Positions 3,683 through 25,405 are shown, counted from the first letter of the stretch. The stretch: 32,000 nucleotides of DNA from Thermohalobacter berrensis (GCF_003609645.1 NZ_MCIB01000002.1:33698-65697), one strand, 5' to 3'. Notes: generated by a model from the letters alone, not told the origin. A program made the numbers and translations.

Positions 3683-3741
3683 CAGTTGTTGCTTTTGGTT
3701 TCGCTAAGAACCAAGAGCTAGCAACTAATAACTGCTTTTTT
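3683..3741. terminator. Bidirectional rho-independent terminator between convergent genes
   Basis: Nested hairpin CAGTTGTTGCT-TTGGTT...AACCAA-AGCAAC..AACTG, with CTTTTTT on the plus strand and a T-rich tail on the minus strand. Confidence 0.5.
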
Positions 3742-5974: not shown

Positions 5975-6214
5975 TTTATTCAGCCCCCTTTACGATGATT
6001 CAACAAAAATACAATAAACTTGACATATTAATTATATCATTTTTTATACAAAAATGTTCAAATATTAAAAAATTATCCCTTATATTATAAGCTTTTCAGC
6101 TTTTATTTTATTTAAACAGTTAATTACAAATTTTTGAAATTAATTTTTTTGCTTAGTACAAGTTTTATTTAAATTATTAGTTCCATATAATTTATTAGAT
6201 GAGGAGTGGTAAAA

Positions 6215-6973
6215 TTGAGAAGATTTACCTTAATACTTTTTAGTTTTATCTGTATACTTATAGTTATTATAGTTGGAAACAAGATAACACTATATTTAAA
6301 AAATCAAAAAGTTGAAAGAAAGGGAATAAAGTTTGTTACTTCTCAGTATGAAAAATGGGAAGAGGAAAAACTAAAGGAAAATAAAGATTATAACTTGGGT
6401 ATATTAATTGATATTGATAGAAAATATCTTTACCTTATTGATATGAAAAAAAACAAACTAATAAAAAGATATGTAGTTGCTACAGGAAGGCCCAGTAGTC
6501 CTTCACCTATAGGAAGTTACAAGATAATTGAGAAGGCTAAATGGGGTGGAGGATTTGGTTCAAGGTGGATGAGGATTAACGTACCATGGGGTAAATATGG
6601 CATACATGGTACTAATAAACCAGGTTCTATAGGATATAATGCTTCCCATGGATGTATTAGAATGAGAAATAAAGACGTTGAAGAGTTATATAGCTTAGTA
6701 AAATATAATACTCCCGTAGTTCTAATAAAAGGATCCTATGGTCCCTTTGGCCATGGATTTAGAACTTTAAGACCAGGTGATAGAGGAGCAGATGTTAGAG
6801 AGGTACAAAGGGTCCTTAAAGAAAAAGAATATTATTATGGGGCTTTAGATGGGATATATGGTAATGGTATGAAGGCTGCTTTAATAAGATTTTTAAAGGA
6901 GAATAATATGCCTATTACTGATAGAATAGGATATACTGTATATAAAAAGCTAGGAATTATATTAATGGATTAA
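6215..6973 (+). CDS. L,D-transpeptidase (YkuD domain) with C-terminal peptidoglycan-binding domain
   Basis: Catalytic motif HGT...SHGCIRM and a PG_binding_1-like C-terminus (GDRGADVREVQRVLKE...YYYGALDGIYG). The ORF opens at GTG 6206, but SD GAGGAG fits the TTG at 6215. Confidence 0.85.
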   Translation: MRRFTLILFSFICILIVIIVGNKITLYLKNQKVERKGIKFVTSQYEKWEEEKLKENKDYNLGILIDIDRKYLYLIDMKKNKLIKRYVVATGRPSSPSPIGSYKIIEKAKWGGGFGSRWMRINVPWGKYGIHGTNKPGSIGYNASHGCIRMRNKDVEELYSLVKYNTPVVLIKGSYGPFGHGFRTLRPGDRGADVREVQRVLKEKEYYYGALDGIYGNGMKAALIRFLKENNMPITDRIGYTVYKKLGIILMD

Positions 6974-7055
6974 TATATCATGTTTATTTGTTAACAAATT
7001 TACTTTATAATTAGAATATCAATACATTAAAAACAACAGATTAAGGGGGATAAGG
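6902..7055 (+). repeat. Left 154-bp direct repeat (attL-like junction)
   Basis: By eye identical over its whole length to 21677-21830. It covers the last 72 nt of the L,D-transpeptidase CDS plus 82 nt of downstream sequence. Confidence 0.9.
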
Positions 7056-7184
7056 AATAGACAAAATAAAAAGAATACAATGTTTAAATAATTTTGCCCT
7101 AATGCACGTTAAAAATATAAACAAAACTAAAAAATAGTAAATATTAGTTAGGTAAAATTAAATAGGAAAACTGCTAATTATTAC

Positions 7185-7212
7185 TTGACAGTAACAAAAT
7201 GGCTTGTATACT
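7185..7212 (+). promoter_or_regulatory. Sigma-A-like promoter candidate for the hsd operon
   Basis: TTGACA (7185-7190), 16-nt spacer, TATACT (7207-7212). A second candidate is the extended -10 TGATATAAT at 7233-7241. Confidence 0.45.
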
Positions 7213-7298
7213 GGAATATAATTACAAAGGTATGATATAATTTTTATAGTCAACAAAACTATTAAAGCAAGTTATTTTAATATCGGAGGGTGAATTAT

Positions 7299-8816
7299 AT
7301 GTCTAAATTAACACTACAAAAACTAGAATCAACTTTATGGAAGGCAGCAGACATACTTAGAGGAGAATTAAGTGCTGCCGAATATAAAGATTATATATTT
7401 GGTTTATTATTTTTAAAGAGGATGAATGATCAATTTGAAGTTGAAAGACAAAAGAAAAAAGAAGAATTTTTATCACAGGGTATGGCTGAAGAAGAAGTAA
7501 ATATAATTCTTGAAGAATCTTCTATATATGAGAGTTTCTTTGTTCCAAAAAGGGCAAGATGGGAAAATTTAAGAAATTTAAATCTAAATATTGGGCCTGA
7601 ATTGGACAAGGCGTTTAAAGCAATAGAAGATGAACCTAAAAATTCTGAACTTATAGGTGTACTTACGACTGCAAATTACAACGATAAGGAAAGGGTGCCA
7701 GATAAAAAGTTATCTCAACTTTTATTGTTGTTTGATAGTATAAATCTTTCAAATGATAATCTTGAAAATAAAGATGTACTTGGTAATGCATATGAATATC
7801 TAATAAAAAAATTTGCTGATGAAGGTGGTAAAAAAGGTGGAGAATTCTACACTCCAGAGGAAGTAGTTAAAGTTCTTGTAAATATCCTAAAACCACAAGA
7901 AGGAGACAGAATATATGACCCAACTGTAGGAAGTGGGGGTATGCTAATACACTCAACTCATTACATAGAAAAACATGGTGGTAACCCTAAAAATGTTTCA
8001 CTGTTCGGTCAAGAAATAAATCTTTCTACGTGGGCTATTTGTAAAATGAATATGCTTTTCCATGATGCAAGGGGAGCAGATATACAAAAGGGCGATACTA
8101 TAAGATATCCTATGCATGTAGAAGGTGGAGTATTAAAAACCTTTGATATAGTTCTTGCAAATCCACCATTTTCGTTGAAAAACTGGGGTAAAGAAGAAGC
8201 ACAGGCAGATCCATATAATAGATTCCCATATGGAGTACCACCAAAAAGTTATGGTGATATGGCATTTGTATGCCACATGATAGCAAGTTTAAACGATAAA
8301 GGAAAAATGGGTACAGTAGTTCCACATGGAGTATTATTTAGAGGTGGAGCAGAAGGAAAGATAAGAAAAGGAATATTAAAGGATGATTTAATTGAAGCAG
8401 TAATAGGACTTCCTGCAAATATATTCTATGGTACAGGAATTCCAGCAGCATTACTTATAGTAAATAAAAATAAACCAGCAGAGAGAAAAGAAAAAATACT
8501 ATTTATAGATGCAAGTAAAGGCTTCATAAAGGACGGAAACAAAAATAAACTTAGAGAAGAAGATATAGAAAAGATAACTAAGACTTTTGATGAGTTCAAA
8601 GATGTGGATAAATATGCTAGAGTAGTAAGTTTAGATGAAATAAAAGAAAATGATTATAACTTAAATATAAGTAGATATGTAGATACAACTGAACCAGAAC
8701 CAGAAATAGATATACCAGAAGTTATTAAGGAAATAAAAGAATTAAAAGAAAAGTCTAAGAAAACAGAAGATAGATTAAATGAGTATTTAAAGGAATTAGG
8801 ATTTGATGAAATTTAA
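7299..8816 (+). CDS. hsdM: Type I restriction-modification system, N6-adenine DNA methyltransferase subunit
   Basis: AdoMet motif [10 protein letters not shown], catalytic NPPF ([11 protein letters not shown]), HsdM N-terminal helical domain. SD GGAGGG 8 nt before ATG 7299 (the ORF opens at GTG 7290). Confidence 0.95.
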
Positions 8817-8924
8817 AATAAGTATGTAAATAAGTTTTAAGAAACAGATGATGAATTAGAAATTTGTATTAGGTTAAATGATTGGTATTAAAAAACAAAA
8901 ATAATAAGGGGAATACAAGGTAAC

Positions 8925-9185
8925 ATGGATAATGTTCTTACAAATGAATTATTTTATAAATCTCTGTTAAAAGTTTTTGTTGAGATATTTAAAATGGCAT
9001 GGCAATTGGATGTTTTTAAGTCAGCAATTATAGGTATTCCTGTGTCTATAGTTACATATAGAATTGTTGGTTTCGTTTTTTCATGGGGTAGATATAATGG
9101 CATTTGGTTTGGAAGAGTAGGAGGAAAATTAATATATTATTGTATAAACTCGATTCTAATATGGTTAATTATGAAAGTGGTATAA
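8925..9185 (+). CDS. Hypothetical small membrane protein (86 aa) between hsdM and hsdS
   Basis: Two or three hydrophobic helices (SAIIGIPVSIVTYRIVGFVF; LIYYCINSILIWLIM). It is co-directional and ends 6 nt before the hsdS ORF opens. I recognise no family. Confidence 0.45.
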   Translation: MDNVLTNELFYKSLLKVFVEIFKMAWQLDVFKSAIIGIPVSIVTYRIVGFVFSWGRYNGIWFGRVGGKLIYYCINSILIWLIMKVV

Positions 9186-9200
9186 AGAGAGGTGAAGCAG

Positions 9201-10475
9201 TTGGGAACAATTAACAATGAACAATTAATAAATAATAATCAAAATAAATATAAAAAGACAGAAATAGGAGAGATACCGAAGGAGTGGGAGGTTAAGGAAA
9301 TAGGTGAAATAGGTTCAACTTATAATGGGTTATCTGGAAAAAACAAAGATGATTTTGGTAGAGGAAAGCCATTTATACCATATAAAAATATATTTGATAA
9401 TTCAAAAATAGATATTAATTATTTAGATTATGTTGTTATTAAAGACGATGAAAATCAGAATAAAGTTAAGTACGGTGATATATTTTTTACAACGTCATCT
9501 GAAACACCAGAGGAAGTAGGTATGAGTTCTGTTATTTTAGATGAAATAGATGAATTATATTTGAATAGTTTTTGTTTTGGATTTAGATTAAATGATTTTA
9601 GTATATTGTTACCTGAATTTGCAAGATACTTATTTAGAGGAGGCAAAATAAGAAAAATAGTCTCAAGATTGGCACAAGGCTCTACAAGATTCAATTTATC
9701 AAAAACTCAGTTTATGAAGATAAGTATCCCTATTCCCCCACTTAAAGAACAACAAAAAATAGCATCTATTCTTTCAACAGTGGATGAACAAATTGAACAA
9801 ACAGATGTATTAATCGAAAAAACTAAGGAACTTAAAAAAGGACTTATGCAAAAACTTCTGACTAAAGGTATTGGGCATACAGAATTTAAGAAGACGGAAA
9901 TAGGAGAGATACCGAAGGAGTGGGAGGTAATACCCCTATTTGATACAGGAGAATATATAAACGGAAAAGCATTTAAACCTTCTGAATGGAGAGATGAAGG
10001 TATTCCTATAATAAGAATTCAAAATTTAAATGATAAAAATGCAACATATAACTACTATAATCTAGAAGTAGATAAAAAATATCATGTAAATAAAGGTGAT
10101 TTATTATTCGCATGGTCAGGTTCTATAGGATTGCATATATGGAAAGAAGAGAAAGCATATCTAAATCAACATATTTATAAAGTTATTCCAAGCGAAAATG
10201 TAGATAAAAAATATTTATATTATCAATTATCTAGACAAATTGAAATTTTGCTTGAATTATCACATGGATCAACAATGAAACATATAACAAGAAAAAATTT
10301 AAAATTGGTAAAAATACCATTACCCTCACCTAAAGAACAACAAAAAATAGCCACTATTCTTTCAGAAGTAGATAACCAAATAGAGGAGTATGAAATAAAA
10401 AAAGAAAAACTTCAAAACCTTAAAAAAGGACTTATGCAACAATTATTAACAGGTAAAAAAAGGGTGAAAGTATAG
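9201..10475 (+). CDS. hsdS: Type I restriction-modification system, specificity subunit
   Basis: Two TRDs, each opened by TEIGEIPKEWEV and closed by conserved helices (PPLKEQQKIASILSTVDEQIEQ...KKGLMQKLLT and PSPKEQQKIATILSEVDNQIEE...KKGLMQQLLT). The ORF opens at GTG 9192; the TTG at 9201 has better SD spacing. Confidence 0.95.
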   Translation: MGTINNEQLINNNQNKYKKTEIGEIPKEWEVKEIGEIGSTYNGLSGKNKDDFGRGKPFIPYKNIFDNSKIDINYLDYVVIKDDENQNKVKYGDIFFTTSSETPEEVGMSSVILDEIDELYLNSFCFGFRLNDFSILLPEFARYLFRGGKIRKIVSRLAQGSTRFNLSKTQFMKISIPIPPLKEQQKIASILSTVDEQIEQTDVLIEKTKELKKGLMQKLLTKGIGHTEFKKTEIGEIPKEWEVIPLFDTGEYINGKAFKPSEWRDEGIPIIRIQNLNDKNATYNYYNLEVDKKYHVNKGDLLFAWSGSIGLHIWKEEKAYLNQHIYKVIPSENVDKKYLYYQLSRQIEILLELSHGSTMKHITRKNLKLVKIPLPSPKEQQKIATILSEVDNQIEEYEIKKEKLQNLKKGLMQQLLTGKKRVKV

Positions 10476-11305
10476 TGAGATATGCTTTGGCTTTTCGAGA
10501 TGCTAATTTCACAGAAACTCTAAAGTATATTGATGAAATTTCCAATAGATTTGTAAATGAAATAAAGAAGGTTAGTTACGTTTCAGGAGATGAAGAAATT
10601 CAGGAATTATTATCTGAACAAAGTTTAAATCAATTTTTAGCCATTACTTATTCATTAAATATCCCGATAAATGAGGCTAAGTTAAAGGATCCTAATTTTG
10701 AAGACCTTGGTGAATTGTTTGGATTTAATGATACATTAGAAAATAAAGCAAGACTTATGCAAATGTGGATTTCGTTGGGGTCTGCTCTTGAATCATTATT
10801 ACAAATATTTCTGGGAATCTATTTAAGGGATTATGAAAATTCAGGATGGGGAAAATGGGAGAATTTTAAACTCCAAGAAACTAAAGAGAATCTATTAAGA
10901 ACATTAAATGAGTTAAGAGAGAAAGAAATTATAAGTCAGAAACAAAAGAACACATTTAAGAAAGATATTAAGAACTATTTAAAAGATAAACAACAGACTA
11001 AACATTTAGCAGAGTTAATTTTAGGAAGTTTGATTAATTTTTATTATTCAAATAACTTGTGGCCAGATGATGATGCAGATAGGATAAAAGCAAAAATGGA
11101 TTTTATTAGAGAAAATAGAAACTGTGTACATTCATTTAAGGAGAGATATGTAGGAACTTGGGAAGAATTACTTGATTCTTTAAAGTTTTTTACCCAGATT
11201 ATGTTAGAACTTTTATCACGATTACCTGATGTAGATGAAATTCTCCAATATGAGATAGAACTAAAGTCTGAAATTGAGAGTTATTATAATGATTACTGGT
11301 ATTAA
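10475..11305 (+). CDS. Hypothetical all-helical protein (276 aa) between hsdS and hsdR; weak HEPN-like R-x6-H motif
   Basis: The GTG start shares one nt with the hsdS TAG stop (TAGTG), and AGGGTG lies about 8 nt upstream. Motif FIRENRNCVHSF sits near the C-terminus. I recognise no family. Confidence 0.55.
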   Translation: MRYALAFRDANFTETLKYIDEISNRFVNEIKKVSYVSGDEEIQELLSEQSLNQFLAITYSLNIPINEAKLKDPNFEDLGELFGFNDTLENKARLMQMWISLGSALESLLQIFLGIYLRDYENSGWGKWENFKLQETKENLLRTLNELREKEIISQKQKNTFKKDIKNYLKDKQQTKHLAELILGSLINFYYSNNLWPDDDADRIKAKMDFIRENRNCVHSFKERYVGTWEELLDSLKFFTQIMLELLSRLPDVDEILQYEIELKSEIESYYNDYWY

Positions 11306-11355
11306 AGATAGTTAAATAGTTTAAACTAGTGATATCAAAAGTAGGGGGGGGTAAC

Positions 11356-14300
11356 ATGTCTTATCTAGGGAATGAGGAAACCCTTGTTGAAATACCAGCA
11401 ATTGAATACCTACGGGATAAATTAGATTATCAATTTGTCCATGGACAGTTTTTAACCCCTGAATATGGTGAAAGAGATTCAATGACAGAGGTTATATTAA
11501 AGAAAAGGCTAGAAAAGGCACTCAAAAGACTTAATCCATGGATGAATGATACTAATATAAACAAGGCTATAAGATATCTTACTAGACCAGAAAATTTAGG
11601 GGTTAATTTGTATGACATAAATGAGAAAATATATGACGCTATTGTAAATTTATCTTACTCATTAGAACAAGACTTAGATGGTAGTGGTAAAAAGAAATAT
11701 TACACAATTAAGTTTATTGACTGGCATAATATAGATAATAATGAATTTTTAGTTACTAGACAATTTAAAGTACATGGACCAAATGAAAATATAATACCTG
11801 ATATAGTTATATTTATTAACGGGATACCTGTAGTAGTTTTAGAGTGTAAATCACCATTTCTTGAAAAGAGTAAAAACGAAAATATGGGAAAATATGAAGC
11901 CTTTAATCAACTCCAAAGATACATGAATGCAAGAGGTGGAAATATAGTAGAAGGTGCAGAAAGACTCTTTTATACAAACTTTATTACAGGTATATTAAAT
12001 AAATATCATGGTTACATAGGTACTATAAGTTCTACATATCAATTTTATCAGGAATGGAAAGACCCTTATCCTTTTAAAATAAAGGATATAGATGGAGTAG
12101 AGGATAATGGACAAAATATATTTTTACATGGCGTACTTGAAAAAGAGAATCTTGTAGATATAATGCAAAATTTTATATTATTTGAAAGTGGAGTTAAAAA
12201 GGTTTGTAGATATCAGCAATTTAGAGCAGTAAATAAGGCTTTAAAAAGACTTATTAAAGGTAAGGATTCAATAAGTCGTGGGGGAGTTATATGGCATACC
12301 CAAGGTTCGGGCAAATCGTTAACAATGGTATTTTTAGCAAGAAAAATAAGAAAAATTAAGGAACTTATGGATGCTACTATAGTTGTGGTAACTGATAGAA
12401 TAGACTTAGATAAACAAATTTACAACACTTTTGTAAGAACATTATCTAATATTACTACACCAGTTAGGGCAGATAGTGTGGCTTCATTAAAGGAATTACT
12501 ATCCCTTGCACAACCACAAATTATAATGACTACAATTCATAAGTTCCAAGGAGAAAAGGAAGATAAGGAAGTATTAAAGGATTCAAAACAAAAGAAAGGA
12601 TTGTATTTTGAAAAAGAGTTTCCGGTTTTAACTACAAAGTCAAATGTTATAGTACTTGCTGATGAAGCCCATAGAAGTCAATACAAGACAATGGCAAAAA
12701 ATATGAGGAATGCACTGCCAAATGCTGCTTTTATAGGATTTACAGGAACACCTATAGATAAAAAGGATAAATCCACAGTCAGAACATTTGGTAAATATAT
12801 AGATAAATATGGCATAAAACAAGCAGTAGAAGATGGAGCAACAGTAAAAATAGTATATGAAGGTAGAAAACCAGAACTTCAAATTAAAGGAGACACATTA
12901 GAGGAATTATTTGACGAAGCCTTCGGAGATAGAAGTGATGAAGAGAAGGAAGCAATAAAGCAAAAGTATGCTAACAAAAGGACAATAGTTGAGGCAGACG
13001 AAAGAATAGAAGATATAGCCAAGGATATTCTTACCCATTATAAAGAGCAGATTTATCCTAACGGATTTAAGGCACAGGTAGTGTGCGTATCAAGGGATGC
13101 GTGTGTAAAATACTATAACGCATTAAATAAATATATGGGAAAAATTATAGGAGAAAAATTAGAAGTAAAAATTATATTTTCAGGTAGTCCTAATGATGAG
13201 CCATATTTAAAAGAACACCACACTACAAAAGCAGAACAGGATGAAATAATAAAAAGATTTAAGCAACCAATAGATAAGGATAAACTCTGTTTTATTATTG
13301 TAAAGGATATGCTTCTTACGGGATTTGATGCACCAATTGAGCAAGTAATGTATTTAGATAGACCACTGAAAGAACATAATTTACTACAAGCAATTGCAAG
13401 GGTAAATAGAACATATGGAGATAGTAAGAAGTGTGGTTATGTAGTAGATTATTATGGTATATCTAATCATCTAGAAGAAGCATTAGCAATATTTGATAAA
13501 GAAGAACTAGGACAGCCAATGGAATCCTTAGATTCAATATATAATCAGATGCTTTCTTATAGAGAAGCAGTCATGAATATGTTTAGAGGTGTAGACAAAG
13601 ATGATTTAGACAGCCTAGTTAGAAAAATAGAGCCTGAAGATAAAAGGGCAGAATTTGAACTTGCGTACAAAAGATTTGCAAGTACAATGGAACAATTATT
13701 ACCTTCACGGGTTCCAACTAATATGATAAATGATCTGAGATGGCTTACATATATAAGAGCAGCTGCAAAGGCCAGATTTGAACCACAAAACAAATTAGAT
13801 ATAGCAGGGTGTGGAGGAAAGGTTAAAAAAATAATATCAGAACATCTAAAATCTAAAGGTGTAGAGCAATGGATTGAGCCTATTACATTGTTTGATTCAA
13901 ATTTTAATATAAAAATAAACAAATTAGAATCAGATGAAGCAGTAGCATCAAGCATGGAACATGCTATAAAACATGTAATAAATGTTAGAATGGATGAAAA
14001 CCCTGTTCATTATACTTCGTTGCTAGAAAAACTCAAAAAGATATTAGATGAAACCAAGAATAACTGGATAGAGAGAAAAAATAAGTTAAAAGAATTTATA
14101 GAAAATGACATCCAAAAAGGAGAAATAGAGGAAGCAGAGGCATTAGGACTTACAAAGGAAGAATATGCTTTCTTTCAAACAGTTAAAAAACATCTTAAAG
14201 ATGATAGTGATAATACAAATATAGTAAAAGAAGAAGGAGAAGATTATATATCAAATGAGATAATAGAATTATCGAAAAGTATTGCTAAGGATGTAAGCGA

Positions 14301-14484
14301 AATAGTAAAAGAAAATTATGTTATAGATTGGACAACAAATCCATCAAAGACCTCTGATATAGAAAGGGAAATTTATTTAACCCTTACAAAAAAATATTTT
14401 AAAAAGTTAAAGTTAGAGATAAGAAAACAGTTAGTACAGCCACTTCTTAATTTGGCCAAAAAACATTATGCAGTATTAGATTAA
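11356..14484 (+). CDS. hsdR: Type I restriction enzyme, restriction/translocase subunit
   Basis: N-terminal PD-(D/E)xK (IPDIVIFINGIPVVVLECK). SF2 motifs HTQGSGKSLTMV, VLADEAHRSQ, FTGTP and QAIARVNR. Long helical C-terminus. The G-rich SD precedes ATG 11356 (the ORF opens at 11329). Confidence 0.95.
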   Translation: MSYLGNEETLVEIPAIEYLRDKLDYQFVHGQFLTPEYGERDSMTEVILKKRLEKALKRLNPWMNDTNINKAIRYLTRPENLGVNLYDINEKIYDAIVNLSYSLEQDLDGSGKKKYYTIKFIDWHNIDNNEFLVTRQFKVHGPNENIIPDIVIFINGIPVVVLECKSPFLEKSKNENMGKYEAFNQLQRYMNARGGNIVEGAERLFYTNFITGILNKYHGYIGTISSTYQFYQEWKDPYPFKIKDIDGVEDNGQNIFLHGVLEKENLVDIMQNFILFESGVKKVCRYQQFRAVNKALKRLIKGKDSISRGGVIWHTQGSGKSLTMVFLARKIRKIKELMDATIVVVTDRIDLDKQIYNTFVRTLSNITTPVRADSVASLKELLSLAQPQIIMTTIHKFQGEKEDKEVLKDSKQKKGLYFEKEFPVLTTKSNVIVLADEAHRSQYKTMAKNMRNALPNAAFIGFTGTPIDKKDKSTVRTFGKYIDKYGIKQAVEDGATVKIVYEGRKPELQIKGDTLEELFDEAFGDRSDEEKEAIKQKYANKRTIVEADERIEDIAKDILTHYKEQIYPNGFKAQVVCVSRDACVKYYNALNKYMGKIIGEKLEVKIIFSGSPNDEPYLKEHHTTKAEQDEIIKRFKQPIDKDKLCFIIVKDMLLTGFDAPIEQVMYLDRPLKEHNLLQAIARVNRTYGDSKKCGYVVDYYGISNHLEEALAIFDKEELGQPMESLDSIYNQMLSYREAVMNMFRGVDKDDLDSLVRKIEPEDKRAEFELAYKRFASTMEQLLPSRVPTNMINDLRWLTYIRAAAKARFEPQNKLDIAGCGGKVKKIISEHLKSKGVEQWIEPITLFDSNFNIKINKLESDEAVASSMEHAIKHVINVRMDENPVHYTSLLEKLKKILDETKNNWIERKNKLKEFIENDIQKGEIEEAEALGLTKEEYAFFQTVKKHLKDDSDNTNIVKEEGEDYISNEIIELSKSIAKDVSEIVKENYVIDWTTNPSKTSDIEREIYLTLTKKYFKKLKLEIRKQLVQPLLNLAKKHYAVLD

Positions 14485-14496
14485 GGATGATACGAG

Positions 14497-15210
14497 ATGA
14501 AACTATCATTTAACTTTGGAACAAGAAATATAGAATTTGATGTAGAATATAGAAACAGAAAGACTATAGAAATAAGCATGGAGCCACCGGATACAATAAA
14601 CGTAGTGGCTCCTATTAATACTCCAGAGGATGTAATAATTAAAAAAGTAAAAAGCAGAGGCTCTTGGATAGTTCAAAAACTATTTGAATTTAAGAATATG
14701 GAATATAGAAAAATCAAAAGAGAATTTGTTAATGGAGAATCATTTATGTACTTGGGACGAAATTATTCTCTTCAGATAATAGATGATTTAAATATAAAAA
14801 GACCTGAAGTTAAACTATATCAAGGCAAATTTTATATAAAATCAAATACTAGACAAGAAGATATACTACAGGCTGCAATGGAAAATTGGTATAGGAAAAA
14901 GGCGTTAGAAAAGATAACTGAAAGGGTAAAGTATTATCAGCACTATTTTAAAGAAAAACCTTTAGATATAAAGGTAAAAGAGCAGCAGAAAAGATGGGCA
15001 AGTTGTACATCAAAGAATGAATTATTATTTAATTGGAGATGTGTAATGGCTCCATCTCATGTACTCGACTATATAGTAGTTCATGAAATGTGTCATATGG
15101 TTTATAAAAACCATTCAAAGGAATTTTGGGATTTAGTAGCATCAATAATGCCTGATTATCAAACTAGAAAAGAATGGCTTAGAGATTATGGGGTAAGGAT
15201 GGATTTGTAA
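14497..15210 (+). CDS. DUF45/YgjP-like (COG1451, annotated M48-like) zinc metallopeptidase
   Basis: HExxH in VVHEMCHMVYKNHSKEFW, the family-typical context. It starts 12 nt after hsdR, with SD AAGGATGA. Confidence 0.8.
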   Translation: MKLSFNFGTRNIEFDVEYRNRKTIEISMEPPDTINVVAPINTPEDVIIKKVKSRGSWIVQKLFEFKNMEYRKIKREFVNGESFMYLGRNYSLQIIDDLNIKRPEVKLYQGKFYIKSNTRQEDILQAAMENWYRKKALEKITERVKYYQHYFKEKPLDIKVKEQQKRWASCTSKNELLFNWRCVMAPSHVLDYIVVHEMCHMVYKNHSKEFWDLVASIMPDYQTRKEWLRDYGVRMDL

Positions 15211-15228
15211 AAACTAAAGGGGGATAAT

Positions 15229-16695
15229 ATGGAAGATAACTCAAGAGTTCCAAGAGTGTTTATATCTTATAGTTGGTCATCGCAAGACCATGAAAACTGG
15301 GTGTTGGAATTGGCTGAAAGACTAGTAAACGATGGGATAGATGTTATACTTGATAAATGGAATTTAAAAGAAGGACAAGATAAATATGTATTTATGGAGA
15401 AATCTATAAAAAGAGAAGATGTAGATAAAATCTTAGTAATTTGTGACAAAGTATATCAAGAAAAAGCAGATGAAAGAAAAGGTGGAGTAGGGACGGAATC
15501 TCAAATAATATCAAAAGAAGTGTATGAAGATACTGGTCAAGAAAAATTTATACCTATTATAAAAGAATTTGATGAAAATGGACAACCCTTTCTGCCTACT
15601 TTTTTCAGTACAAGAATTTACTTAGATTTTTCAGATCACTATAAATATGAGGAGAGTTATGAAAAATTAGTAAGAAGTTTATATGGGAAGCCCATGTATA
15701 AAAAACCCAAACTGGGTTCTCCTCCACCATATATTTTAGAAGATGAAGTTGATAACTCTAAAACTAAATACTATGTAAAACAGATTGAAAATGCAATATT
15801 GAATAATAAGAAATTCACAAAGGGGTTAATTGTTGATTTTTTAGATAAAATCATTGAATCTCTCGATGAATATAGAATCTATATTGATAATACATCAAAT
15901 ATTAATGAATTTGATGAACTAGTAATAGATAATATAAATAAATTAATACCGTTAAGAAACGATTTTATCAAAGTAGTAGATATAATTTTTAAATATAAAG
16001 AACATATTGATCTCAATAAGTTTCATAGGTTTTGGGAAGAAATAATAAAATATCAATATAAAACACCAGATATGAGTTCGTATTATCAATTCCAATTTGA
16101 TAATTTTAAGTTTTTTATATATGAATTATTTCTGTATTTTATAACTATATTATTAAAATTAGAAAAGTATGAAGAAGCATCTTTTTTCATTAATGCTACA
16201 TATTTTTATAAAATTAACAATTATGGAGAATTAGTTAACGGCAATATATCAGAATTCAATAATTATGTAGAATCACTTGAACAAATAAGGCAAAATAGAT
16301 TAAAGTTAAATAGAATATCTATAACAGCAGATTTAATAAAAGAAAGGGCTAATATTCACAATATAAAATTCAGAGATATTGTTGAAACAGACTATTTATT
16401 ATTTTTTATAACGATAAATAATAGTAAAGATAGTATAAGGCAAGATATATGGGTTCCTAGATGTAGTGTTTATAATAGTTATCATAGAAAACCTTTAATA
16501 TTTGAGAAGATGATTTCTGCTAGACACTTTGAAAAAGTTAAAATACTATTTAAAGTTAATACACCTGAAGAATTTAAAAATATGATATTAAAAACTACGG
16601 ATTTAGGTATAGATAAAGACTATTATAAATCATTTTATCGTATTATTTCTATAAATAAAGTAGTTGATATAGAAAAATTAGCAACTTTAGATTAA
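15229..16695 (+). CDS. TIR/SEFIR-like domain protein with an uncharacterised ~320-aa C-terminal domain
   Basis: N-terminus PRVFISYSWSSQDHENWVLELAERLVNDGIDVILDKWNL..G.....M...I...DKILVICDKVY...GGVGTESQII matches the SEFIR/TIR beta-alpha pattern. The remainder is helical, with one hydrophobic stretch (FFIYELFLYFITILL). SD AAGGGGGA. Confidence 0.65.
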   Translation: MEDNSRVPRVFISYSWSSQDHENWVLELAERLVNDGIDVILDKWNLKEGQDKYVFMEKSIKREDVDKILVICDKVYQEKADERKGGVGTESQIISKEVYEDTGQEKFIPIIKEFDENGQPFLPTFFSTRIYLDFSDHYKYEESYEKLVRSLYGKPMYKKPKLGSPPPYILEDEVDNSKTKYYVKQIENAILNNKKFTKGLIVDFLDKIIESLDEYRIYIDNTSNINEFDELVIDNINKLIPLRNDFIKVVDIIFKYKEHIDLNKFHRFWEEIIKYQYKTPDMSSYYQFQFDNFKFFIYELFLYFITILLKLEKYEEASFFINATYFYKINNYGELVNGNISEFNNYVESLEQIRQNRLKLNRISITADLIKERANIHNIKFRDIVETDYLLFFITINNSKDSIRQDIWVPRCSVYNSYHRKPLIFEKMISARHFEKVKILFKVNTPEEFKNMILKTTDLGIDKDYYKSFYRIISINKVVDIEKLATLD

Positions 16696-16725
16696 TCATA
16701 AATATAATAAAACAATATAAACAAA

Positions 16726-17448
16726 TTAGAAAGGGAATATCTTTAGCACGGATATTCCCTTCGGTATTTTTCTATTTTTCAAATATTCTTGTATAGCATT
16801 TCTGCAATCTGGGTTTATTGGAACTTTTCTATACTTGCCATGCTTACCGTAAATTAATAAATAAGAACCTCTTTCACGAAGTACTATATTATCAATTTTC
16901 AAAGAAATTACTTCACTAACTCTAAGATCATGTCTTAATAGTTTAATTATCAAAATATGATGCTTATAACCACTCCTGTAAATTTCCCTTTTTAGTTTCC
17001 GAAATGTCTTTTCATCTATCCATTTAGGTTGTGAAGGATTTTCAATTTTAATTTTTTAAAGATTCTTTGATACATCTTTTTTTATATAATTATAAGAATA
17101 AAGAAAAGAAAAGTAGTTTTTTAGGCTCATAATCTTTAAATTTACTGTATTTGCTTTTGCATTTTTAATATTGATTAGATAGGACCTAAAATCGCGGAGG
17201 TCTATTGTTGTAATTATTTGGGGTTGAAAGGAATCTGTATTAGATTTATTAAACCACTTTATAAAATTAACAATATTGTCTATATAAGTATTTATAGTTA
17301 ATTCTGTTTTATCTAGATTTTCTAGATATCCTTTAAACTCATTTAAATAATAACAATCCTTATTGATATATAAATCCCTTTTTTCATCTTTAACATACCT
17401 CCAAAATATTTTTTTAGAAGTATATAAATTTTTGATATTCAGTTTCAA
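16726..17448 (-). pseudogene. Tyrosine recombinase (XerC/D-like phage integrase) pseudogene: in-frame TAA plus loss of the C-terminal catalytic half
   Basis: ORFs 17056..17448 (SAM-like N-terminal domain) and 16726..16953 (LLRHDLRVSEV...GKHGKYRKVPIN) share one frame. Only the TAA at 17056-17058 separates them. The H-x-x-R and catalytic Tyr regions are missing. Confidence 0.8.
16731..16771 (+). terminator. Rho-independent terminator ending the hsd/TIR operon
   Basis: Hairpin AAGGGAATATC / GATATTCCCTT followed by CGGTATTTTT. It lies inside the last codons of the antisense integrase fragment. Confidence 0.65.
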
Positions 17449-17522
17449 GAAAAATTTAGTTTTTTGTATATAAAAATTAATAAAATTATGGCCTAAAAAG
17501 TTTTGTTTCCAATTTTTTAGCC

Positions 17523-17564
17523 TTATTTGTTAATGCATAAATTTTACAATTAGAATATTACTGC
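17523..17564. repeat. Degenerate att-like remnant next to the integrase
   Basis: Ungapped 32/42 match to 6984-7025 of the 154-bp repeat, including two exact 11-mers (TTATTTGTTAA and AATTAGAATAT) on the same diagonal. Confidence 0.55.
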
Positions 17565-17713
17565 TTTTGAAAAAGAGTAATTTTTGGTTGAAACATAAAA
17601 TTGAAAAAAGAATTCTAGTTATGTTTAAAAGTTATATGGAAAATCAAGGAAAAGTATTTTATAATAAAAGTGTAAAAGTTTGTATTATATATTTCAATAA
17701 CAGAGGGTATCGA

Positions 17714-19776
17714 ATGTTCGTTTCGAAATTATACATAAAAAACTTTAGAAGTATTAAGAAATTAAAAATTTCATTTAGATCAGGTAAAAACGTATTGGTT
17801 GTAAAGAATAATGCAGGAAAAAGTAATATAGTTAAAGCATTAAATTTGGTTTTAGGTGAAAAAAATCCTGTATATTCAAGGCAAATAAATGAAAAAGATT
17901 TTTTTTCATGTTCAAAAGATGGACAAGTAGTAAGTGAGAAGGCATTTTTTGTTGCAGCAAAATTACAAGGAAAAGATATAAATAAAACAATATTTCAAAA
18001 TGTTAATGGATTATGGTTGGCAACTTTTAAAAATTCAAATCCGTTAGAATCTTTTTTTGAAGGTAATAACTCAAAGAGTTACGAAATTCTCATGGGAAAT
18101 TTTCAGAATATTAAGAACAGAGAGTATTATAAGGATAAGAATCAGTTGTTTAATATGTTTAATAATGCAGATGAACTATACATTTATTTTTGTGCAGTTA
18201 AAGATGATGAGCAAAAGCGTAATATGGATTATTATCAAAAAAATATTCAATAACTTACAGTATATTATTAAAACATGATAACAACTATTATAGATGTTCA
18301 AAATTTCCAAATGACTTAAGGAATTCTTTAATAACAAGTGCAATTCTACCGGCTTTTAGAGATGCAAATAATCAATTGAGAATTAGTGATTGGAGGTTGT
18401 ATGGGAAACTAATTAAACATATATGGGAAAATTCGGATTTTAACAAGAAAGCAGTTATAGAGAAAAAACTTGATGAAATTAAACAAATAACTGATGACAT
18501 TTTTGATGATGCTATTATGGATATTCAACAAAAGATTAGAGAAGCAATATACTTTAGTAATATTTCATTCCAATTATTAGAAAATACTAAAGATGATATA
18601 TATAAAGGGATAGAAGTTTTTATTGACGATGGAATTTTAGGATTATTAAAGGATAAAGGAACTGGTATACAAAGTGCTTTTATAATATCATTATTTTCAT
18701 ATTATTGTAGTAAGTTTCATAAAAATTCGTCACTACTTGTAGTAGAAGAACCAGAAATTTATCTACATCCTCAAGCAAGAAGAGTATTATCGTATAAGTT
18801 TGATGAGTTTGTTAACCTTAATCATATTAACGGCAACCAAGTTATAATAACGACTCATTCAAGTGAATTCATTAGAAATACTAACTTAGAAAATATTATT
18901 CTTGTAAAAAAAGTTAACGGAAGAACTACAACTAAGAGTATTACATTGCATTCTGAAAAAATAAGGATTTAATAAAATTCAAAATATAATATCTACAAAA
19001 AATGCAGAAATATTTTTTGCTGAAAAAGTTATTTTAGTAGAAGGTGGAGAAGAATATATTGTACCATTAATTGTAGATGAATATTTTGGAAAGTCTGGTT
19101 ATTTAGATAATAATAATATTACAGTAGCAAAAGTTGGAGGTAAATATTTTTTTAAACCTTATTTGCAATTAATATCTGCCTTAGGAATTGAATATTATGT
19201 TATTGCTGATTTTGATATGCTTTATGAAGGATTAGAACATTTAAGAGAATTTATTAATTGTGTTACTTATTTAGACATTAATGAAATAAAAAGTGAATTA
19301 TTTAAAATTGTTACACCTGATAATCAATGGAAAGAAAGCAAAAAAATAAAGAAACAATTAAAAAAGTATAATGCAAAAGAATTTTGCAATCTAGTAGAAA
19401 AGATATGTGATACTAAAGAGTATGATGAACAATTATGTGAGATATGGTCAGATATTAAACCTAGATTTAAGAAGAAAATAGATTATGAAACTTTAAAGCA
19501 ACGTAAAAACTTACAAAAAAAATATATAATTTTATTGACAAATTAAAAGAAGATAATATTTATATTATGAAAAAAGGAGAATTAGAGGATTATATAACGT
19601 CTTATGGCTGGCAAGTAATAAAAGAATTTGGATTTTCAGATCAAAAAGAGTTGAGAATAATGAAGTTAGCAGAAATGATAAGTAGAGGGGATATTAAATT
19701 AGAAGATGTTATGGACGTACAAGAGTATTTAGAAGTGATTAAGAAAATAAAAGTTTTATTAAATAATAATATTTAA
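17714..19776 (+). pseudogene. OLD-family ATP-dependent endonuclease (ABC-type ATPase plus Toprim), disrupted by three frameshifts
   Basis: N-terminus YIKNFRSI...NNAGKSNIVKALNLVLG, signature GTGIQS, Walker B LLVVEEPEIYLHP, H-loop ITTHS, Toprim ILVEGGEE and VIADFD. The reading frame changes at the A7 run 18237-18243, within GGATTT 18965-18970, and at the A8 run 19515-19522. Confidence 0.8.
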
Positions 19777-19878
19777 ATATAAGTAAGAGATTATATATAT
19801 TGTCTTATAAATACTTAAATTCATAATAAACTTAAGCAGAAATATAATTAAATACATATATTACAAGGGGGAGTTTTT

Positions 19879-20832
19879 ATGATTTATAACTTTAGGATTG
19901 ACAGAAGTTGTAGAGAAGATATTATTAACAGAATTAAAACTGAAAAAACATTATCCCAAGGCTGGGGAGGTGGAGATTATAATCTAAGTTTGGAAGATGA
20001 AGATTTTGTCAATAGGTGTTATGAACACTATAAGTTGAATAGTACTAGAATACCTACTAACTTAACTAGAATTAGAGAATTTAAAGATAATGATATTATT
20101 GTAGTACCTCATTTGCCAGAAGATAGAAAAGTAACTTTCTTAATAGTTGATGAAGATTATCCTAACTGCTATGAATATGTTAAAAATGATAAAACCCATC
20201 AAAATCACAGAATTAAAATAAAAGAAGTATATGGATTAGAGGGAAATGTTGAGATATATAATGAGAAATTAGTAAATTGGTATGGTAAATTACAGTGGAT
20301 GAGACTACCTATACTGCCAATAGATAAGTTTAGTAAAGATATTAATGAGATTATAGATAATTTAAGAAAAAATCCAAGTTTAAAATTTAAAATGACAGAG
20401 TTAGATGAATATCTATTAAACAAAAAAGATGAGTTAGTTAATAAATTAAAAGAGGACTTACGAAAGATAAATGCAAGTAATAGTGCTTTATCTTTTGAAA
20501 AAATTTGTGAAAAAATAATAAAAGATAATGGGTATGAGATTAAAAGAAGAAACGTATATGACAAAACAGGTGGAGACATAGACCTAGAGTGTATAAGAAA
20601 TAGAAATGATATTTCACCTTTTGAGAGTGGAGAAGTCAAATTGTTTGTTCAGATTAAGAAACATAAAGGTGAAACTGATGAATATGCGGTAAAACAAGTT
20701 TCTAAATTTATGGATAAAAATCCAGAGGCTGATGGATGTGTTATGACACTAGCAGATAAATTTTCTGATAATGCAATTAAAGAGGCAAATGAAAAAAAAT
20801 ATTTCATTATTAAATGGAAAAGAAGTATGTGA
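19879..20832 (+). CDS. Mrr-like PD-(D/E)xK restriction endonuclease with an unknown N-terminal domain; C-terminus altered by an A8-tract frameshift
   Basis: C-terminal half FEKICEKIIKDNGYEI...GGDIDLEC...LFVQIKKHKG resembles the Mrr catalytic core. One fewer A in 20792-20799 would read ...EKNISLLNGKEVCELLLRSMIQIDG and stop at 20869. Confidence 0.65.
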   Translation: MIYNFRIDRSCREDIINRIKTEKTLSQGWGGGDYNLSLEDEDFVNRCYEHYKLNSTRIPTNLTRIREFKDNDIIVVPHLPEDRKVTFLIVDEDYPNCYEYVKNDKTHQNHRIKIKEVYGLEGNVEIYNEKLVNWYGKLQWMRLPILPIDKFSKDINEIIDNLRKNPSLKFKMTELDEYLLNKKDELVNKLKEDLRKINASNSALSFEKICEKIIKDNGYEIKRRNVYDKTGGDIDLECIRNRNDISPFESGEVKLFVQIKKHKGETDEYAVKQVSKFMDKNPEADGCVMTLADKFSDNAIKEANEKKYFIIKWKRSM

Positions 20833-21050
20833 GTTGCTACTAAGAAGTATGATTCAAATAGACGGCTAAATGAAACAACAGAAGTTAGTGGATTATTATA
20901 GATATTTAGTTCACTATCTTAATTTAATATTAAAAGTTCTTAAGATTTAACTAAAAGTAGTATTAATGAAAATACTGTTGTGGCAAGGTTATAATAAAAG
21001 AAAAAATAAACTTAATAGCATATAATATAAAAATACAAATATTTAATCTT

Positions 21051-21081
21051 AAAAATGGGCAGTAAAAAACTGCCCATTTTG
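21051..21081. terminator. Bidirectional rho-independent terminator
   Basis: Hairpin ATGGGCAGT / ACTGCCCAT flanked by an A-run and a T-run. Confidence 0.65.
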
Positions 21082-21147
21082 CATATTATATAGAATATGG
21101 AGGTAATGTTTATTTATTATTTTTTTAATACTTGATTTAACTAATAA

Positions 21148-21426
21148 TTATTCTAAAGTAGTCTTATAGCCCATATACGATAAAAGAACATGGAACAATA
21201 TACTTGCTAAGACATTTCTCAAAAAGTAATGTTGTGCATAAATACTATTACTTATTATATAGATGTAAATACATGTAGGTACTAACCAAAAAGAAAAATA
21301 AATTCTTTTAATCATTTTCTTTATTCTTTTAGTCATATGTGTTTCCACAAAAAACATTAAAAGATTGTATGCAACAGTGTAAACAAAGAGACAAAAAAAG
21401 ATAATTCTAAAATAATTACCTATCAT
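21148..21426 (-). CDS. Hypothetical small membrane protein (92 aa), last cargo gene of the island
   Basis: About three hydrophobic helices, a strong SD AAGGAGG 10 nt upstream of the ATG, and a terminator downstream at 21051-21081. Confidence 0.5.
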   Translation of the reverse strand: MIGNYFRIIFFCLFVYTVAYNLLMFFVETHMTKRIKKMIKRIYFSFWLVPTCIYIYIISNSIYAQHYFLRNVLASILFHVLLSYMGYKTTLE

Positions 21427-21676
21427 ATAATTAATTCCTCCTTATTTTTTATCCGTTATATAGAACTTTTTATTTAAATTTCAAGTTAAATTTTTAGTTT
21501 TTTAAGTAAAAAAACTTGAACTTAGAAATGCTTTTTTATTAAGATGCATCAAAATTATATCTAAAGGCTATTAGCAAAGTTAAGCAGGAATTAAATTGAA
21601 ATTGAATGACGAACAGTTTAAAATTAAACTATTAAATAACATTAAACAAGTATATAAAAATGCTAAATTAAGGGAT

Positions 21677-21830
21677 AATAATATGCCTATTACTGATAGA
21701 ATAGGATATACTGTATATAAAAAGCTAGGAATTATATTAATGGATTAATATATCATGTTTATTTGTTAACAAATTTACTTTATAATTAGAATATCAATAC
21801 ATTAAAAACAACAGATTAAGGGGGATAAGG
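21677..21830 (+). repeat. Right 154-bp direct repeat (attR-like junction), carrying the functional metH leader
   Basis: Identical to 6902-7055 and ends exactly at the metH GTG (21831). Confidence 0.9.
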
Positions 21831-25346: not shown

Positions 25347-25405
25347 TATAAACCATCAGAAAGGAATTTAATGACATAAACAAAAAATTATAGGAAGGTG
25401 ATAAA

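Follow-up and report, generated by a model that had tools for sequence, protein, structure and literature searches.

The stretch of Thermohalobacter berrensis DNA analysed here – 32,000 nucleotides, hereafter the window – carries a gene for an L,D-transpeptidase (ldt) and, downstream on the same strand, one for a homocysteine S-methyltransferase (metH), separated by a block of mostly defence-type genes that is bounded by two identical copies of a 154-bp sequence. In the order in which they lie, the features are:

6206..6973, + strand: ldt, L,D-transpeptidase with YkuD and PG_binding_1 domains (Pfam), intact, 100% identical to a T. berrensis protein; the left repeat takes in its final 72 nt
6902..7055, + strand: left repeat copy, comprising the ldt tail and stop codon plus the next 82 nt, in which an SD-like AAGGGGG is followed by no start codon
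7056..7289, + strand: non-coding DNA at the insert's left edge, with a strong hsdM promoter-like sequence (TTGACA-16-TATACT, 7185-7212)
7290..8816, + strand: hsdM, Type I methyltransferase (Pfam/PADLOC; NCBI start 7299), 87% aa identity to C. faecium locus L084
8925..9185, + strand: 86-aa ORF of no assignable function, conserved inside the R-M operon (57% aa identity in L084 and 55% in L092, same position), without a Pfam match
9192..10475, + strand: hsdS, specificity subunit with two target-recognition domains (Pfam/PADLOC)
10475..11305, + strand: 276-aa ORF of no assignable function between hsdS and hsdR, with no significant Pfam or PADLOC family
11329..14484, + strand: hsdR, Type I restriction subunit (Pfam/PADLOC; NCBI start 11356), 84% aa identity to L084
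14497..15210, + strand: ygjP, YgjP-like (M48/SprT-type) metallopeptidase, the usual final gene of the R-M operon (Pfam, synteny)
15229..16695, + strand: bSEFIR/TIR-domain defence protein (Pfam SEFIR/TIR_2; PADLOC bSEFIR, 5e-109)
16726..17448, - strand: pseudogene of an Xer-like tyrosine recombinase (int), frameshifted by loss of 1 nt downstream of the native ATG, interrupted by an internal stop and truncated at about residue 205 of 297
17449..17643, no strand: non-coding int-upstream block, 68-86% nt identity across genera, holding AAAAATTGGAAACAAAACTTTTT at 17495-17517
17714..19776, + strand: AAA_15 / OLD-GajA-AriA-like ATPase gene, split into three or more frames (17567/17714-18253, 18376-18972, 19163-19546, 19567-19776)
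19879..20832, + strand: Mrr_cat-domain restriction endonuclease-like protein, 317 aa, intact (Pfam)
21148..21426, - strand: 92-aa membrane ORF, a hotspot backbone gene, 64-67% aa identity to Caloranaerobacter and 41% to L086
21427..21676, + strand: upstream region and first 27 codons (21596-21676) of a DUF1444 (YtpQ family) gene, by homology to relatives
21677..21830, + strand: right repeat copy, fused in frame to the DUF1444 fragment and supplying the metH RBS
21831..24209, + strand: metH, homocysteine S-methyltransferase with pterin-binding and B12-binding domains, intact (Pfam)

In a direct string comparison, 6902-7055 and 21677-21830 are identical at all 154 positions – an agreement that cannot have arisen by chance – and these are the sole two copies within the window. 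The exact identity extends to neither side; seven of the nine nucleotides to the left also match, and a repeat search returns 6893-7055 against 21668-21830 (163 nt, 99%). Within each copy, the final 72 nt of ldt are followed by 82 nt that reach to the metH GTG, stopping one base before this codon at 21831, which is also the metH start in the NCBI annotation. The perfect repeats, their content (on which ORF and NCBI coordinates agree) and the 14,621-bp (14.6-kb) segment that they enclose between ldt and metH are all as a preliminary description of the sequence had reported them. Its further claim, that a gene end had been reconstituted, also holds: because of the duplication, both neighbours are kept intact, ldt being full-length, with a C-terminus colinear with those of eight orthologues down to the final residue, and metH retaining its RBS and the 82 nt that precede its start. 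Only in the left copy is the ldt tail functional, while AAGGGGG stands 7 nt before the metH GTG in the right copy and precedes no gene in the left one. Adjacency of ldt and metH was found in no relative; gene order around ldt is conserved in none of the relatives examined, and the next ldt relative, 69% identical, has a different neighbourhood.

Within the insert, hsdM, hsdS and hsdR form a single operon, all three genes being intact and recognised with Pfam/PADLOC E-values of 1e-54 to 1e-174. The description of the cargo as entirely defence-type is mostly right, as it covers the Type I R-M system, the bSEFIR/TIR protein, the OLD/GajA/AriA-like ATPase and the Mrr-like nuclease, but it is overstated, the exceptions being the recombinase pseudogene, the DUF1444 fragment and three ORFs to which no function can be assigned (86, 276 and 92 aa). 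Comparing insert and flanks, a check that had been proposed along with it, revealed no difference: codon usage and tetranucleotide profile are indistinguishable. A DNA transposon, recognisable by its transposase gene, by inverted repeats at its termini and by a short target-site duplication of fixed length, was also considered and rejected: domain searches detected no transposase in the insert, the inverted-repeat listing contains no pair at 7056/21676, and a duplication of 154 bp is far longer than those known from transposases.

The only recombinase gene of the insert, int, lies in its middle, with 9.6 kb to one end and 4.2 kb to the other. Homology to intact relatives stops at residue 205 of 297, the C-terminal third being gone, and the HxxR motif, the His and the catalytic Tyr are therefore absent; with these lesions, the T. 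berrensis recombinase is inactive. Intact orthologues of int, with 63-85% aa identity, were found at seven loci, all of them the same DUF1444-adjacent chromosomal locus, and neither ldt nor metH occurs at any of the seven. Among 2.9 million viral contigs there was neither a close relative of int nor a copy of the repeat (searched as an exact match to a 37-nt repeat segment), and the plasmid relatives of int are at most 35% identical.

The locus to which the int orthologues belong is a chromosomal defence hotspot, carried by Caloranaerobacter, Clostridium faecium and uncultured Tissierellia (metagenomic). Its order is DUF1444, the 92-aa membrane ORF, a variable defence slot, the Xer-like int with a conserved upstream block of ~190 bp, and a second variable slot, so that int sits at the centre with a variable slot on each side; the far side is often occupied by a ygjP-hsdR-hsdS-hsdM Type I R-M operon. 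Among relatives, the systems found at the same position include pAgo, Zorya, Type I R-M, OLD-family, HD/PDDEXK and AAA_23. The whole T. berrensis insert is colinear with such int-centred loci (L084/L085 from C. faecium; L086/L087; L081-L083 from Caloranaerobacter), and the likeness runs through it from one side to the other: hsdM is 87%, hsdR 84% and ygjP 70-75% identical at the aa level, int with ~195 nt upstream 68-86% at the nt level, and the 92-aa ORF with the intergenic region and the DUF1444 5' end ~75% at the nt level. The insert's left end (7056..7289) has no homologue in any locus retrieved. The bSEFIR/TIR gene fills the slot between ygjP and int, taking the place of the int 3' end, and is missing at this position in L084; of the Mrr_cat gene, a 186-nt remnant of the 5' end is present in L081.

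In relatives, the 92-aa ORF always adjoins DUF1444. Between genera, both are 39-50% identical, and they diverge like host genes; the 92-aa ORF of the window is 64-67% identical to its Caloranaerobacter counterparts, comparable to ldt at 67-71%. The right end of the insert is a truncated gene of host type – DUF1444 codons 1-27 – together with its native upstream region, the homology to relatives reaching ~21670 and ending at the repeat edge. Across this edge runs an ORF (21596-21748) that encodes a 50-aa chimera, in which DUF1444 residues 1-27 are in frame with the ldt tail. At 21668-21676, the DUF1444 side matches the ldt sequence just left of the repeat at the seven of nine positions noted above (TTAAGGGAT versus TTAAAGGAG; a binomial estimate for this base composition gives p ~0.005). 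The right junction (21676|21677) recurs in an independent metagenome contig (L169, ENA ERZ27245802 k141_12510), which is identical to window positions 21111-21710 at 599 of 600 nt, 34 nt of the repeat included. The left junction (7055|7056) was found in no other assembly.

We see about an even chance that the insert is a block of this defence hotspot, joined into the ldt–metH junction by illegitimate recombination with a long target duplication, and not a mobile element that integrated itself. This reading is preferred because int is central and dead, because its orthologues are not found at ldt or metH, and because the whole insert is syntenic with the hotspot. The piece moved would extend from 234 nt upstream of hsdM through DUF1444 codon 27, and its joining may have involved microhomology-type recombination, through either staggered-break repair or replication template switching, with duplication of the 154 bp of target lying between the two joints; as to how the joining came about, 'illegitimate recombination' is more a description than a demonstrated pathway. 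No enzyme encoded in the block would have made the insertion, since its recombinase gene is a pseudogene, and the perfect repeats would serve today only as substrates for RecA-type deletion or amplification. As the SD with a start codon occurs only in the right copy and the ldt tail functions only in the left, the simplest ancestor is a contiguous ldt–82 nt–metH, and the event was probably an insertion into that arrangement; this direction is read from the structure alone, because no empty-site allele was found, the sole other T. berrensis-like sequence recovered (L169) carrying the same right junction. The source of the block may have been the T. berrensis genome itself or a related donor; a search for the native source site – the remaining DUF1444 in T. 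berrensis or the donor genome – did not find it. Under long target duplication, it is a coincidence that the metH start codon marks the exact end of the repeat.

The preliminary description had instead taken the structure as the mark of site-specific integration at the 3' end of a gene, a view that the evidence above does not support. In its classical form, an attP would share 154 bp with the ldt 3' end and the metH upstream region, the repeats would be attL and attR, each holding the crossover core, and the integrase would later have decayed or acted in trans. A defence island at a gene 3' end, flanked by direct repeats, with the gene end reconstituted and a tyrosine recombinase gene inside, does fit this picture. 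The repeat also contains a 14-bp palindrome, ATTTGTTAACAAAT, and its second-best match in the window, which ranks among the top ~1% of 265-nt windows, covers 52 nt of the int-upstream block (17522-17574). Identity blocks of such length do occur, since ~165 bp from the 3' end of icd is present in the attP of phage 21 and of e14. An integrative island, however, has an intact integrase gene of its own, which normally adjoins one att site. Here the sole tyrosine recombinase gene is distant from both ends and has lost its catalytic half, its orthologues are tied to the DUF1444-adjacent hotspot and not to this target gene or att sequence, and the supposed attP arm, far from being element-specific DNA, is a truncated host-type gene abutting the identity block. 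Moreover, the conserved motif of the int-upstream block is missing at both insert ends, the match of this block to the repeat is not significant over the whole window (42 of 200 shuffles score equally high), and the searches of viral contigs and plasmids described above returned no attP-like copy or close int relative. We therefore consider such an island unlikely.

Three further accounts deserve weighing against a hotspot block inserted with long target duplication. A circle carrying the block and one 154-bp ldt–metH segment, possibly derived from a sibling cell that already had the insertion, could have entered by a RecA-mediated single crossover of the Campbell type. A crossover within a shared segment yields exactly such perfect repeats, with ends that are the segment ends; 154 bp should suffice for RecA-type recombination, and two copies without a single mismatch are consistent with a recent event driven by homology. 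Yet the presence of the DUF1444 fragment and ldt–metH on one circle is left unexplained, an earlier illegitimate event is still required, and a search for a plasmid or phage relative of the block found none, which makes this route, too, improbable. The hotspot might instead lie natively after ldt, the present structure having arisen without insertion, either by a deletion that joined DUF1444 codon 27 to metH with a templated 154-bp patch from 14.6 kb upstream, or by a large tandem duplication followed by deletion. Since the 92-aa ORF and the DUF1444 fragment have diverged from Caloranaerobacter to the same extent as ldt, and the block resembles its flanks in composition, it may indeed be native to the T. 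berrensis genome, and the lack of conserved gene order around ldt in relatives fits as well. At least two rare events would nonetheless be needed, and the patch would by chance have to provide a well-spaced SD before the metH GTG, whereas the SD-like sequence of the left copy precedes no gene; the duplication–deletion route also leads one to expect a second hotspot copy, and the continuous, short contig (95.8 kb) argues against it. Such a multi-step origin seems a rather poor prospect. Finally, the duplication or one of the junctions could be the work of the assembler, with ldt and metH truly contiguous and the block located at another site or on its own molecule: the assembly has draft status, the contig measures 95,808 bp, the left junction has no counterpart in another assembly, and a 154-bp repeat is near short-read length. 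Against this stand the 599/600 agreement across the right junction and into the repeat in the independent metagenome assembly and the lack, at either junction, of long k-mers common to its two sides that could have produced a false join, and we hold an artefact to be very improbable.

Among known systems, the insert shares with chromosomal defence islands flanked by core genes that relatives carry differing defence systems between the same conserved genes; in contrast to typical islands, this hotspot is built around a conserved Xer-like int and its upstream block, with a variable slot on each side, and the T. berrensis block, unlike islands in place, is separated from its usual neighbour DUF1444. 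It resembles phage 21 and e14 at icd in its direct repeats of ~150 bp that comprise a gene 3' end, in the reconstitution of this gene and in an internal tyrosine recombinase gene. It differs from islands of that type in that the recombinase is internal and inactive, with orthologues not linked to this target, that one insert end is a truncated chromosomal gene, and that the search for a related element bearing this att sequence found none.

The closest parallel may be a class of insertions already known from R-M systems, those with long target duplication (Nobusato et al. 2000, Gene 259:99; Furuta, Abe & Kobayashi 2010, NAR 38:2428, PMC2853133). Its operational criteria are R and M genes within an insert of <20 kb and a flanking direct repeat of >30 bp with high identity; it is defined as being without other mobility genes, and it includes Type I–IV systems with repeats of 46-423 bp, those in H. 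influenzae overlapping a gene's 3' end (PMC2853133). In T. berrensis, intact hsdM, hsdS and hsdR – a Type I system, as among the published cases – lie in an insert of 14,621 bp between target repeats identical at 154/154 positions, a length within the published range; the repeats overlap a gene 3' end as in H. influenzae, and no active transposase or integrase stands at the insert ends. In the published criteria, the repeat also occurs as a single copy at the undisturbed site of a related genome; for T. berrensis, no such genome was found for comparison. It departs from the class, too, in being a multi-system defence block and not an R-M unit alone, in holding an integrase pseudogene, inactive and away from the ends, and in having as one of its ends a fragment of a housekeeping gene, which implies that arbitrary chromosomal DNA was moved.

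A single long direct repeat runs through the window, placed by a repeat search at 6893–7055 and 21668–21830 (163 nt, 99% identity) and resolved by string comparison into a perfect core: 6902–7055 and 21677–21830 agree at 154 of 154 nt, with no exact extension on either side and no further copies in the window. The left copy comprises the final 72 nt, stop codon included, of the L,D-transpeptidase gene (ldt), whose product is colinear at its C-terminus, to the final residue, with eight orthologues; the right copy stops one base short of the GTG of the methionine synthase gene (metH), a start that the NCBI annotation shares. That identical 154-bp repeats hold the ldt tail and the DNA upstream of metH, as the preliminary description had it, is borne out in full.

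Features of the insert and its borders, from left to right
6206–6973: ldt, a YkuD L,D-transpeptidase with a PG_binding_1 domain
6902–7055: left repeat copy
left end of the insert: 234 non-coding nt with a near-consensus promoter
7290–15210: restriction–modification (R-M) operon, with hsdM, an 86-aa ORF, hsdS, a 276-aa ORF, hsdR and a gene for a YgjP-like metallopeptidase
after the YgjP-like gene: bSEFIR/TIR protein (PADLOC, 5e-109)
16726–17448, minus strand: Xer-like tyrosine recombinase pseudogene (int), between the bSEFIR and AAA_15 genes
AAA_15 ATPase gene of the OLD/GajA/AriA kind, broken over at least three frames
intact gene for an Mrr_cat nuclease-like protein
minus strand: 92-aa membrane ORF
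21596–21748: 50-aa ORF, extending into the right repeat
21677–21830: right repeat copy
21831–24209: metH, a MetH-type methionine synthase

We infer that ldt, 82 nt and metH were formerly contiguous, since the SD sequence AAGGGGG is properly spaced only ahead of metH – its left twin precedes no gene – and the ldt tail is required only at the left copy. In the search for an uninserted site, exact look-ups returned no record, whether for ldt (as 255 or 252 aa) or for the chimeric ORF of 50 aa. Within 10 kb of ldt relatives at 80 genome loci there was neither metH nor any other window protein queried (the main island proteins, the AI-2E transporter whose gene precedes ldt and the PRD antiterminator whose gene follows metH), and the nearest relative, at 69% identity, lies in a different neighbourhood.

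On its right side the insert finishes in a truncated chromosomal gene rather than in a mobile-element terminus. Aligned with Caloranaerobacter, the window tracks DUF1444 through its promoter region, its start codon and ~25 initial codons as far as ~21670, and this similarity gives way to the ldt tail at 21677; ORF 21596–21748 accordingly reads MKLNDEQFKIKLLNNIKQVYKNAKLRD fused to NNMPITDRIGYTVYKKLGIILMD, the Caloranaerobacter N-terminus being LKLDKEQFKLKLLNDIKKVYENAELNEE, and neither the rest of DUF1444 nor its usual neighbours occur in the window. In the 9 nt to the left of the two repeat copies, the DUF1444 side of the joint (TTAAGGGAT) matches the ldt bases that directly precede the left copy (TTAAAGGAG) at 7/9 positions (p ~0.005 by a binomial estimate for this base composition). 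DUF1444 is a housekeeping gene; its family, YtpQ, has lately been assigned the role of oxygen-independent coproporphyrinogen oxidase in Bacillaceae (PMC10965808). Together with the 92-aa ORF it diverges along with its hosts (39–50% between genera), and the 92-aa ORF of the window is 64–67% identical to that of Caloranaerobacter, the same level as ldt (67–71%). The joint is also found elsewhere: a 600-bp ENA metagenome contig (ERZ27245802 k141_12510) is identical to window 21111–21710 at 599 of 600 positions, crosses the junction and includes 34 nt of the repeat, and at least the right junction is thus present in a second, independently assembled data set.

Where such DNA normally resides is indicated by seven fetched loci with int orthologues, which come from C. 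ferrireducens (L081), a Caloranaerobacter-like Logan contig (L082), Caloranaerobacter sp. DY30410 (L083), Clostridium faecium and a matching metagenome contig (L084, L085) and an ENA/Logan taxon (L086, L087). They share one order – a 94-aa ORF, DUF1444 on the opposite strand, the 92-aa ORF, variable genes, int and a second variable set – and in L084–L086 the second set is followed by ygjP-hsdR-(X)-hsdS-86aa-hsdM. In this conserved chromosomal hotspot beside DUF1444/ytpQ, the defence systems flanking int differ by genome and comprise pAgo, Zorya, OLD, HD/PDDEXK, AAA_23, bSEFIR and Type I R-M.

Variable genes between the 92-aa ORF and int, and after int, in relatives
L081: an intact OLD-TOPRIM protein and a TPR protein; after int, a 600-aa ORF and a 791-aa AAA_23 protein
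L083: HSDR_N_2 protein (408 aa) and a 103-aa ORF, on a contig without the 92-aa ORF; after int, Piwi/pAgo with KAP NTPase remnants
L084/L085: DUF7669 and others; after int, ygjP-hsdR-X-hsdS-86aa-hsdM directly
L086/L087: HD, PDDEXK and a resolvase; after int, Zorya ZorA–D and then ygjP-hsdR, L087 showing a 216-aa ORF and ZorD up to the contig end

The window insert is colinear with this hotspot throughout: amino acid identity is 87% for hsdM, 84% for hsdR and 70–75% for ygjP; the 5′ two-thirds of int with ~195 nt upstream are 68–86% identical in nucleotides to the relatives' loci; and 21113–21671 is ~75% identical to the Caloranaerobacter 92-aa ORF, intergenic region and first ~75 nt of DUF1444. 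Neither ldt nor metH occurs in any of the seven loci. The block may have come either from the DUF1444 locus of T. berrensis itself or from a donor at the same distance; a word-indexed search for the former, run at a cut-off of 1e-20 at which known 39%-identical homologues were missed, returned Caloranaerobacter proteins only. A foreign composition of the insert was considered and rejected, as insert and flanks are alike in GC3, in relative codon usage and in tetranucleotide correlation. A plasmid or phage origin was likewise rejected, Megablast with the whole insert giving no match. The cargo, previously called entirely defence-type, is so in most of its coding capacity; the exceptions are the 86-, 276- and 92-aa ORFs, which gave no matches.

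The R-M operon has a history of its own. Its proteins are 84–92% identical to those of L084 (4372–13103) and of another copy (L170) in distant hosts, compared with at most 41–65% for the hotspot backbone, and the module therefore moves horizontally. In one distant host (Logan SRR27750984) the gene upstream is unrelated and, judged from its translation, encodes an SGNH-like hydrolase, and the ORF between hsdS and hsdR varies by copy (276 aa in the window, 585 aa in L084). A metagenome scan with hsdM found many hsdMSR-ygjP operons, none with int or DUF1444 downstream. The presence of the same operon in the int-adjacent slot of distant hosts, at 84–87% protein identity and thus far above the backbone, points to what may be repeated slot-specific capture.

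As read from its coding sequence, the recombinase of the window is dead, and it is not at an end of the insert, being separated from the left and right repeats by 9.6 and 4.2 kb. Its minus-strand frame has an internal stop after ...SKNL and ends after ...KIFPF, and alignment of the start region shows one base lost in the A-run after the native ATG. Intact homologues of 297 aa are 85, 79, 76, 65% and less identical; homology to the C. ferrireducens protein ends at residue 205 (window 16768), so that the catalytic HxxR, His and Tyr residues are absent. The 3′ end of int has given way to the bSEFIR gene, so the recombinase cannot have acted since that gene arrived. In Caloranaerobacter sp. DY30410, too, int is broken, into 257 and 42 aa (L083 2668–3566), which brings the decaying copies to at least two of the eight hotspot-type loci, window included.

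A ~190-bp non-coding block 5′ of int is kept across genera (window 17449–17643; L081 9750–10000; L082 8002–8256; L083 2414–2667; L084 3057–3304; L086 9756–10000), with conserved stretches such as CAACATAACTACAATTC and GCTAAAAAATTGGAAACAAAACTTTTT; the conserved motifs of the hotspot also include AAACAAAACTTTT. A related ~50-nt motif, ~70% identical, recurs beyond DUF1444, ahead of the 94-aa ORF (L081 1329–1376; L082 4425–4478; L085 near 5414) and could, as a candidate, be a shared operator or recombinase-binding site. Within the block, 17522–17574 resembles repeat positions 82–132 (6983–7033), in the intergenic part of the repeat, sharing TTATTTGTTAA and setting ACAATTAGAATAT opposite ATAATTAGAATAT; it ranks second among local matches to the repeat in the window (score 38, top ~1% of windows) and by eye looks better than that of the relatives' orthologous blocks. 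In a whole-window shuffle test it was not significant, the best score being reached in 42 of 200 shuffles. The idea of a degenerate third att copy between two tandem elements was dropped on this ground and because the region is conserved in the int module of all relatives; the likeness is an unexplained lead that we do not count as evidence.

It is conceivable, though doubtful, that int and its upstream block mark an undescribed two-slot, recombinase-centred platform for defence-gene exchange in Tissierellia. A hotspot of this kind, with variable defence cargo to either side of an Xer-like recombinase gene and its conserved upstream block, appears undescribed, and a literature search for DUF1444 found no account of one; uncovered here by comparison, it may merit separate study. 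Were the platform real, the insert in T. berrensis would show that entire blocks of it, together with remnants of their DUF1444 flank, can be moved to new chromosomal sites by insertion with long target duplication, and C. ferrireducens would hold a second trace of block transfer. That genome carries a second, decayed copy of DUF1444 and its upstream region between DUF1444 and the 92-aa ORF (L081 1970–2691 against 3214–3706, the extra copy also being given as 3043–3706; 75–97% nucleotide identity to the intact one), which may have been left by a previous block acquisition or have arisen by tandem duplication at the edge of the hotspot; the C. faecium locus has no second copy of the region beyond hsdM. 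A Tn7-like tnsABCD/tniQ module lies a few genes past DUF1444 in the C. faecium-like contig (L085 1–4735) and a second tyrosine integrase occupies the same position in L086, and the far side of DUF1444 is thus likewise insertion-prone.

We favour an origin in which a block of the hotspot would have been joined between ldt and metH by microhomology-type illegitimate recombination, either in the repair of a staggered break or by template switching, with the 154 bp that separate the joints copied in the process. Of the preliminary reading, the insertion with reconstituted gene ends is retained, whereas site-specific integration into a gene 3′ end is not: the insert has no element-specific end and no competent integrase near one, and neither a relative at the same target among the seven int loci nor an attP-like copy among viral contigs was found. 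Classical att-site integration, with later decay or action in trans, is on these four counts unlikely. A tRNA-type att site is ruled out, Rfam and tRNA scans of the window having given nothing, and a dif-like site in the repeat (~15/28 positions against the B. subtilis dif consensus, by eye) was judged unconvincing.

Campbell integration, in which a circle recombined with the chromosome at the 154-bp homology, would still require an earlier illegitimate event, and we give it the same low standing as the att-site reading. A multi-step rearrangement, with the hotspot native beside ldt, is a little less probable again, as it demands more events and a fortuitous SD. That the duplication is an assembly artefact is very improbable, the right junction having been independently observed. 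The perfect repeats predict loss or amplification of the entire defence block by homologous recombination, and today they permit only such homology-driven changes.

Several other features of the window were noted. A ~125-nt element, 87–94% identical in three copies, lies directly upstream of, and in the same orientation as, genes for an MscS channel (1620–1749, plus strand), PTS EIIA and then CrcB (25221–25348, plus) and an MntP Mn exporter (28215–28346, minus). RNAalifold folds it into a long hairpin and a second hairpin followed by a T-run; it has no Rfam match even at E ≤ 1. Its first and third copies form a 127-nt inverted pair around 26.5 kb, including the entire insert, and could mediate an inversion. 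FeoB is split between two minus-strand ORFs (28838–31004; one of 258 aa that holds the G-domain, the other of 470 aa that holds Gate/FeoB_C, overlapping at 30228–30250), either by a frameshift or as a naturally split gene. A perfect 26+26-nt palindrome 3′ of the ferritin gene (27067–27118) and a 20-nt perfect hairpin 3′ of the PRD antiterminator gene (25174–25222), with only spurious miRNA-type matches in Rfam, are probably terminators.

The wider lesson is one of caution: long direct repeats at a gene end need not mean att-site integration, and here they flank what looks like a block cut from a chromosomal hotspot, with the integrase inside a bystander. Kobayashi and colleagues described insertions with long target duplication in which Type I–IV R-M complexes, without mobility genes, are flanked by 46–423 bp of duplicated target of near-perfect identity, double-strand breakage having been suggested as a mechanism (PMC2853133). 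To this poorly understood class T. berrensis would add a Firmicutes, multi-system, Type I example, and its breakpoint within a housekeeping gene, together with the 7/9 microhomology, narrows the mechanism towards a joining of arbitrary DNA, illegitimate or by template switching, and away from an activity that recognises element ends. The insert works unlike integrase-mediated islands, whose end, integrase and target features were not found here. It agrees with the testable operational features of the long-target-duplication class, its closest known kind, within which it would be unusual for its multi-system cargo, its dead recombinase passenger and its breakpoint inside a housekeeping gene.
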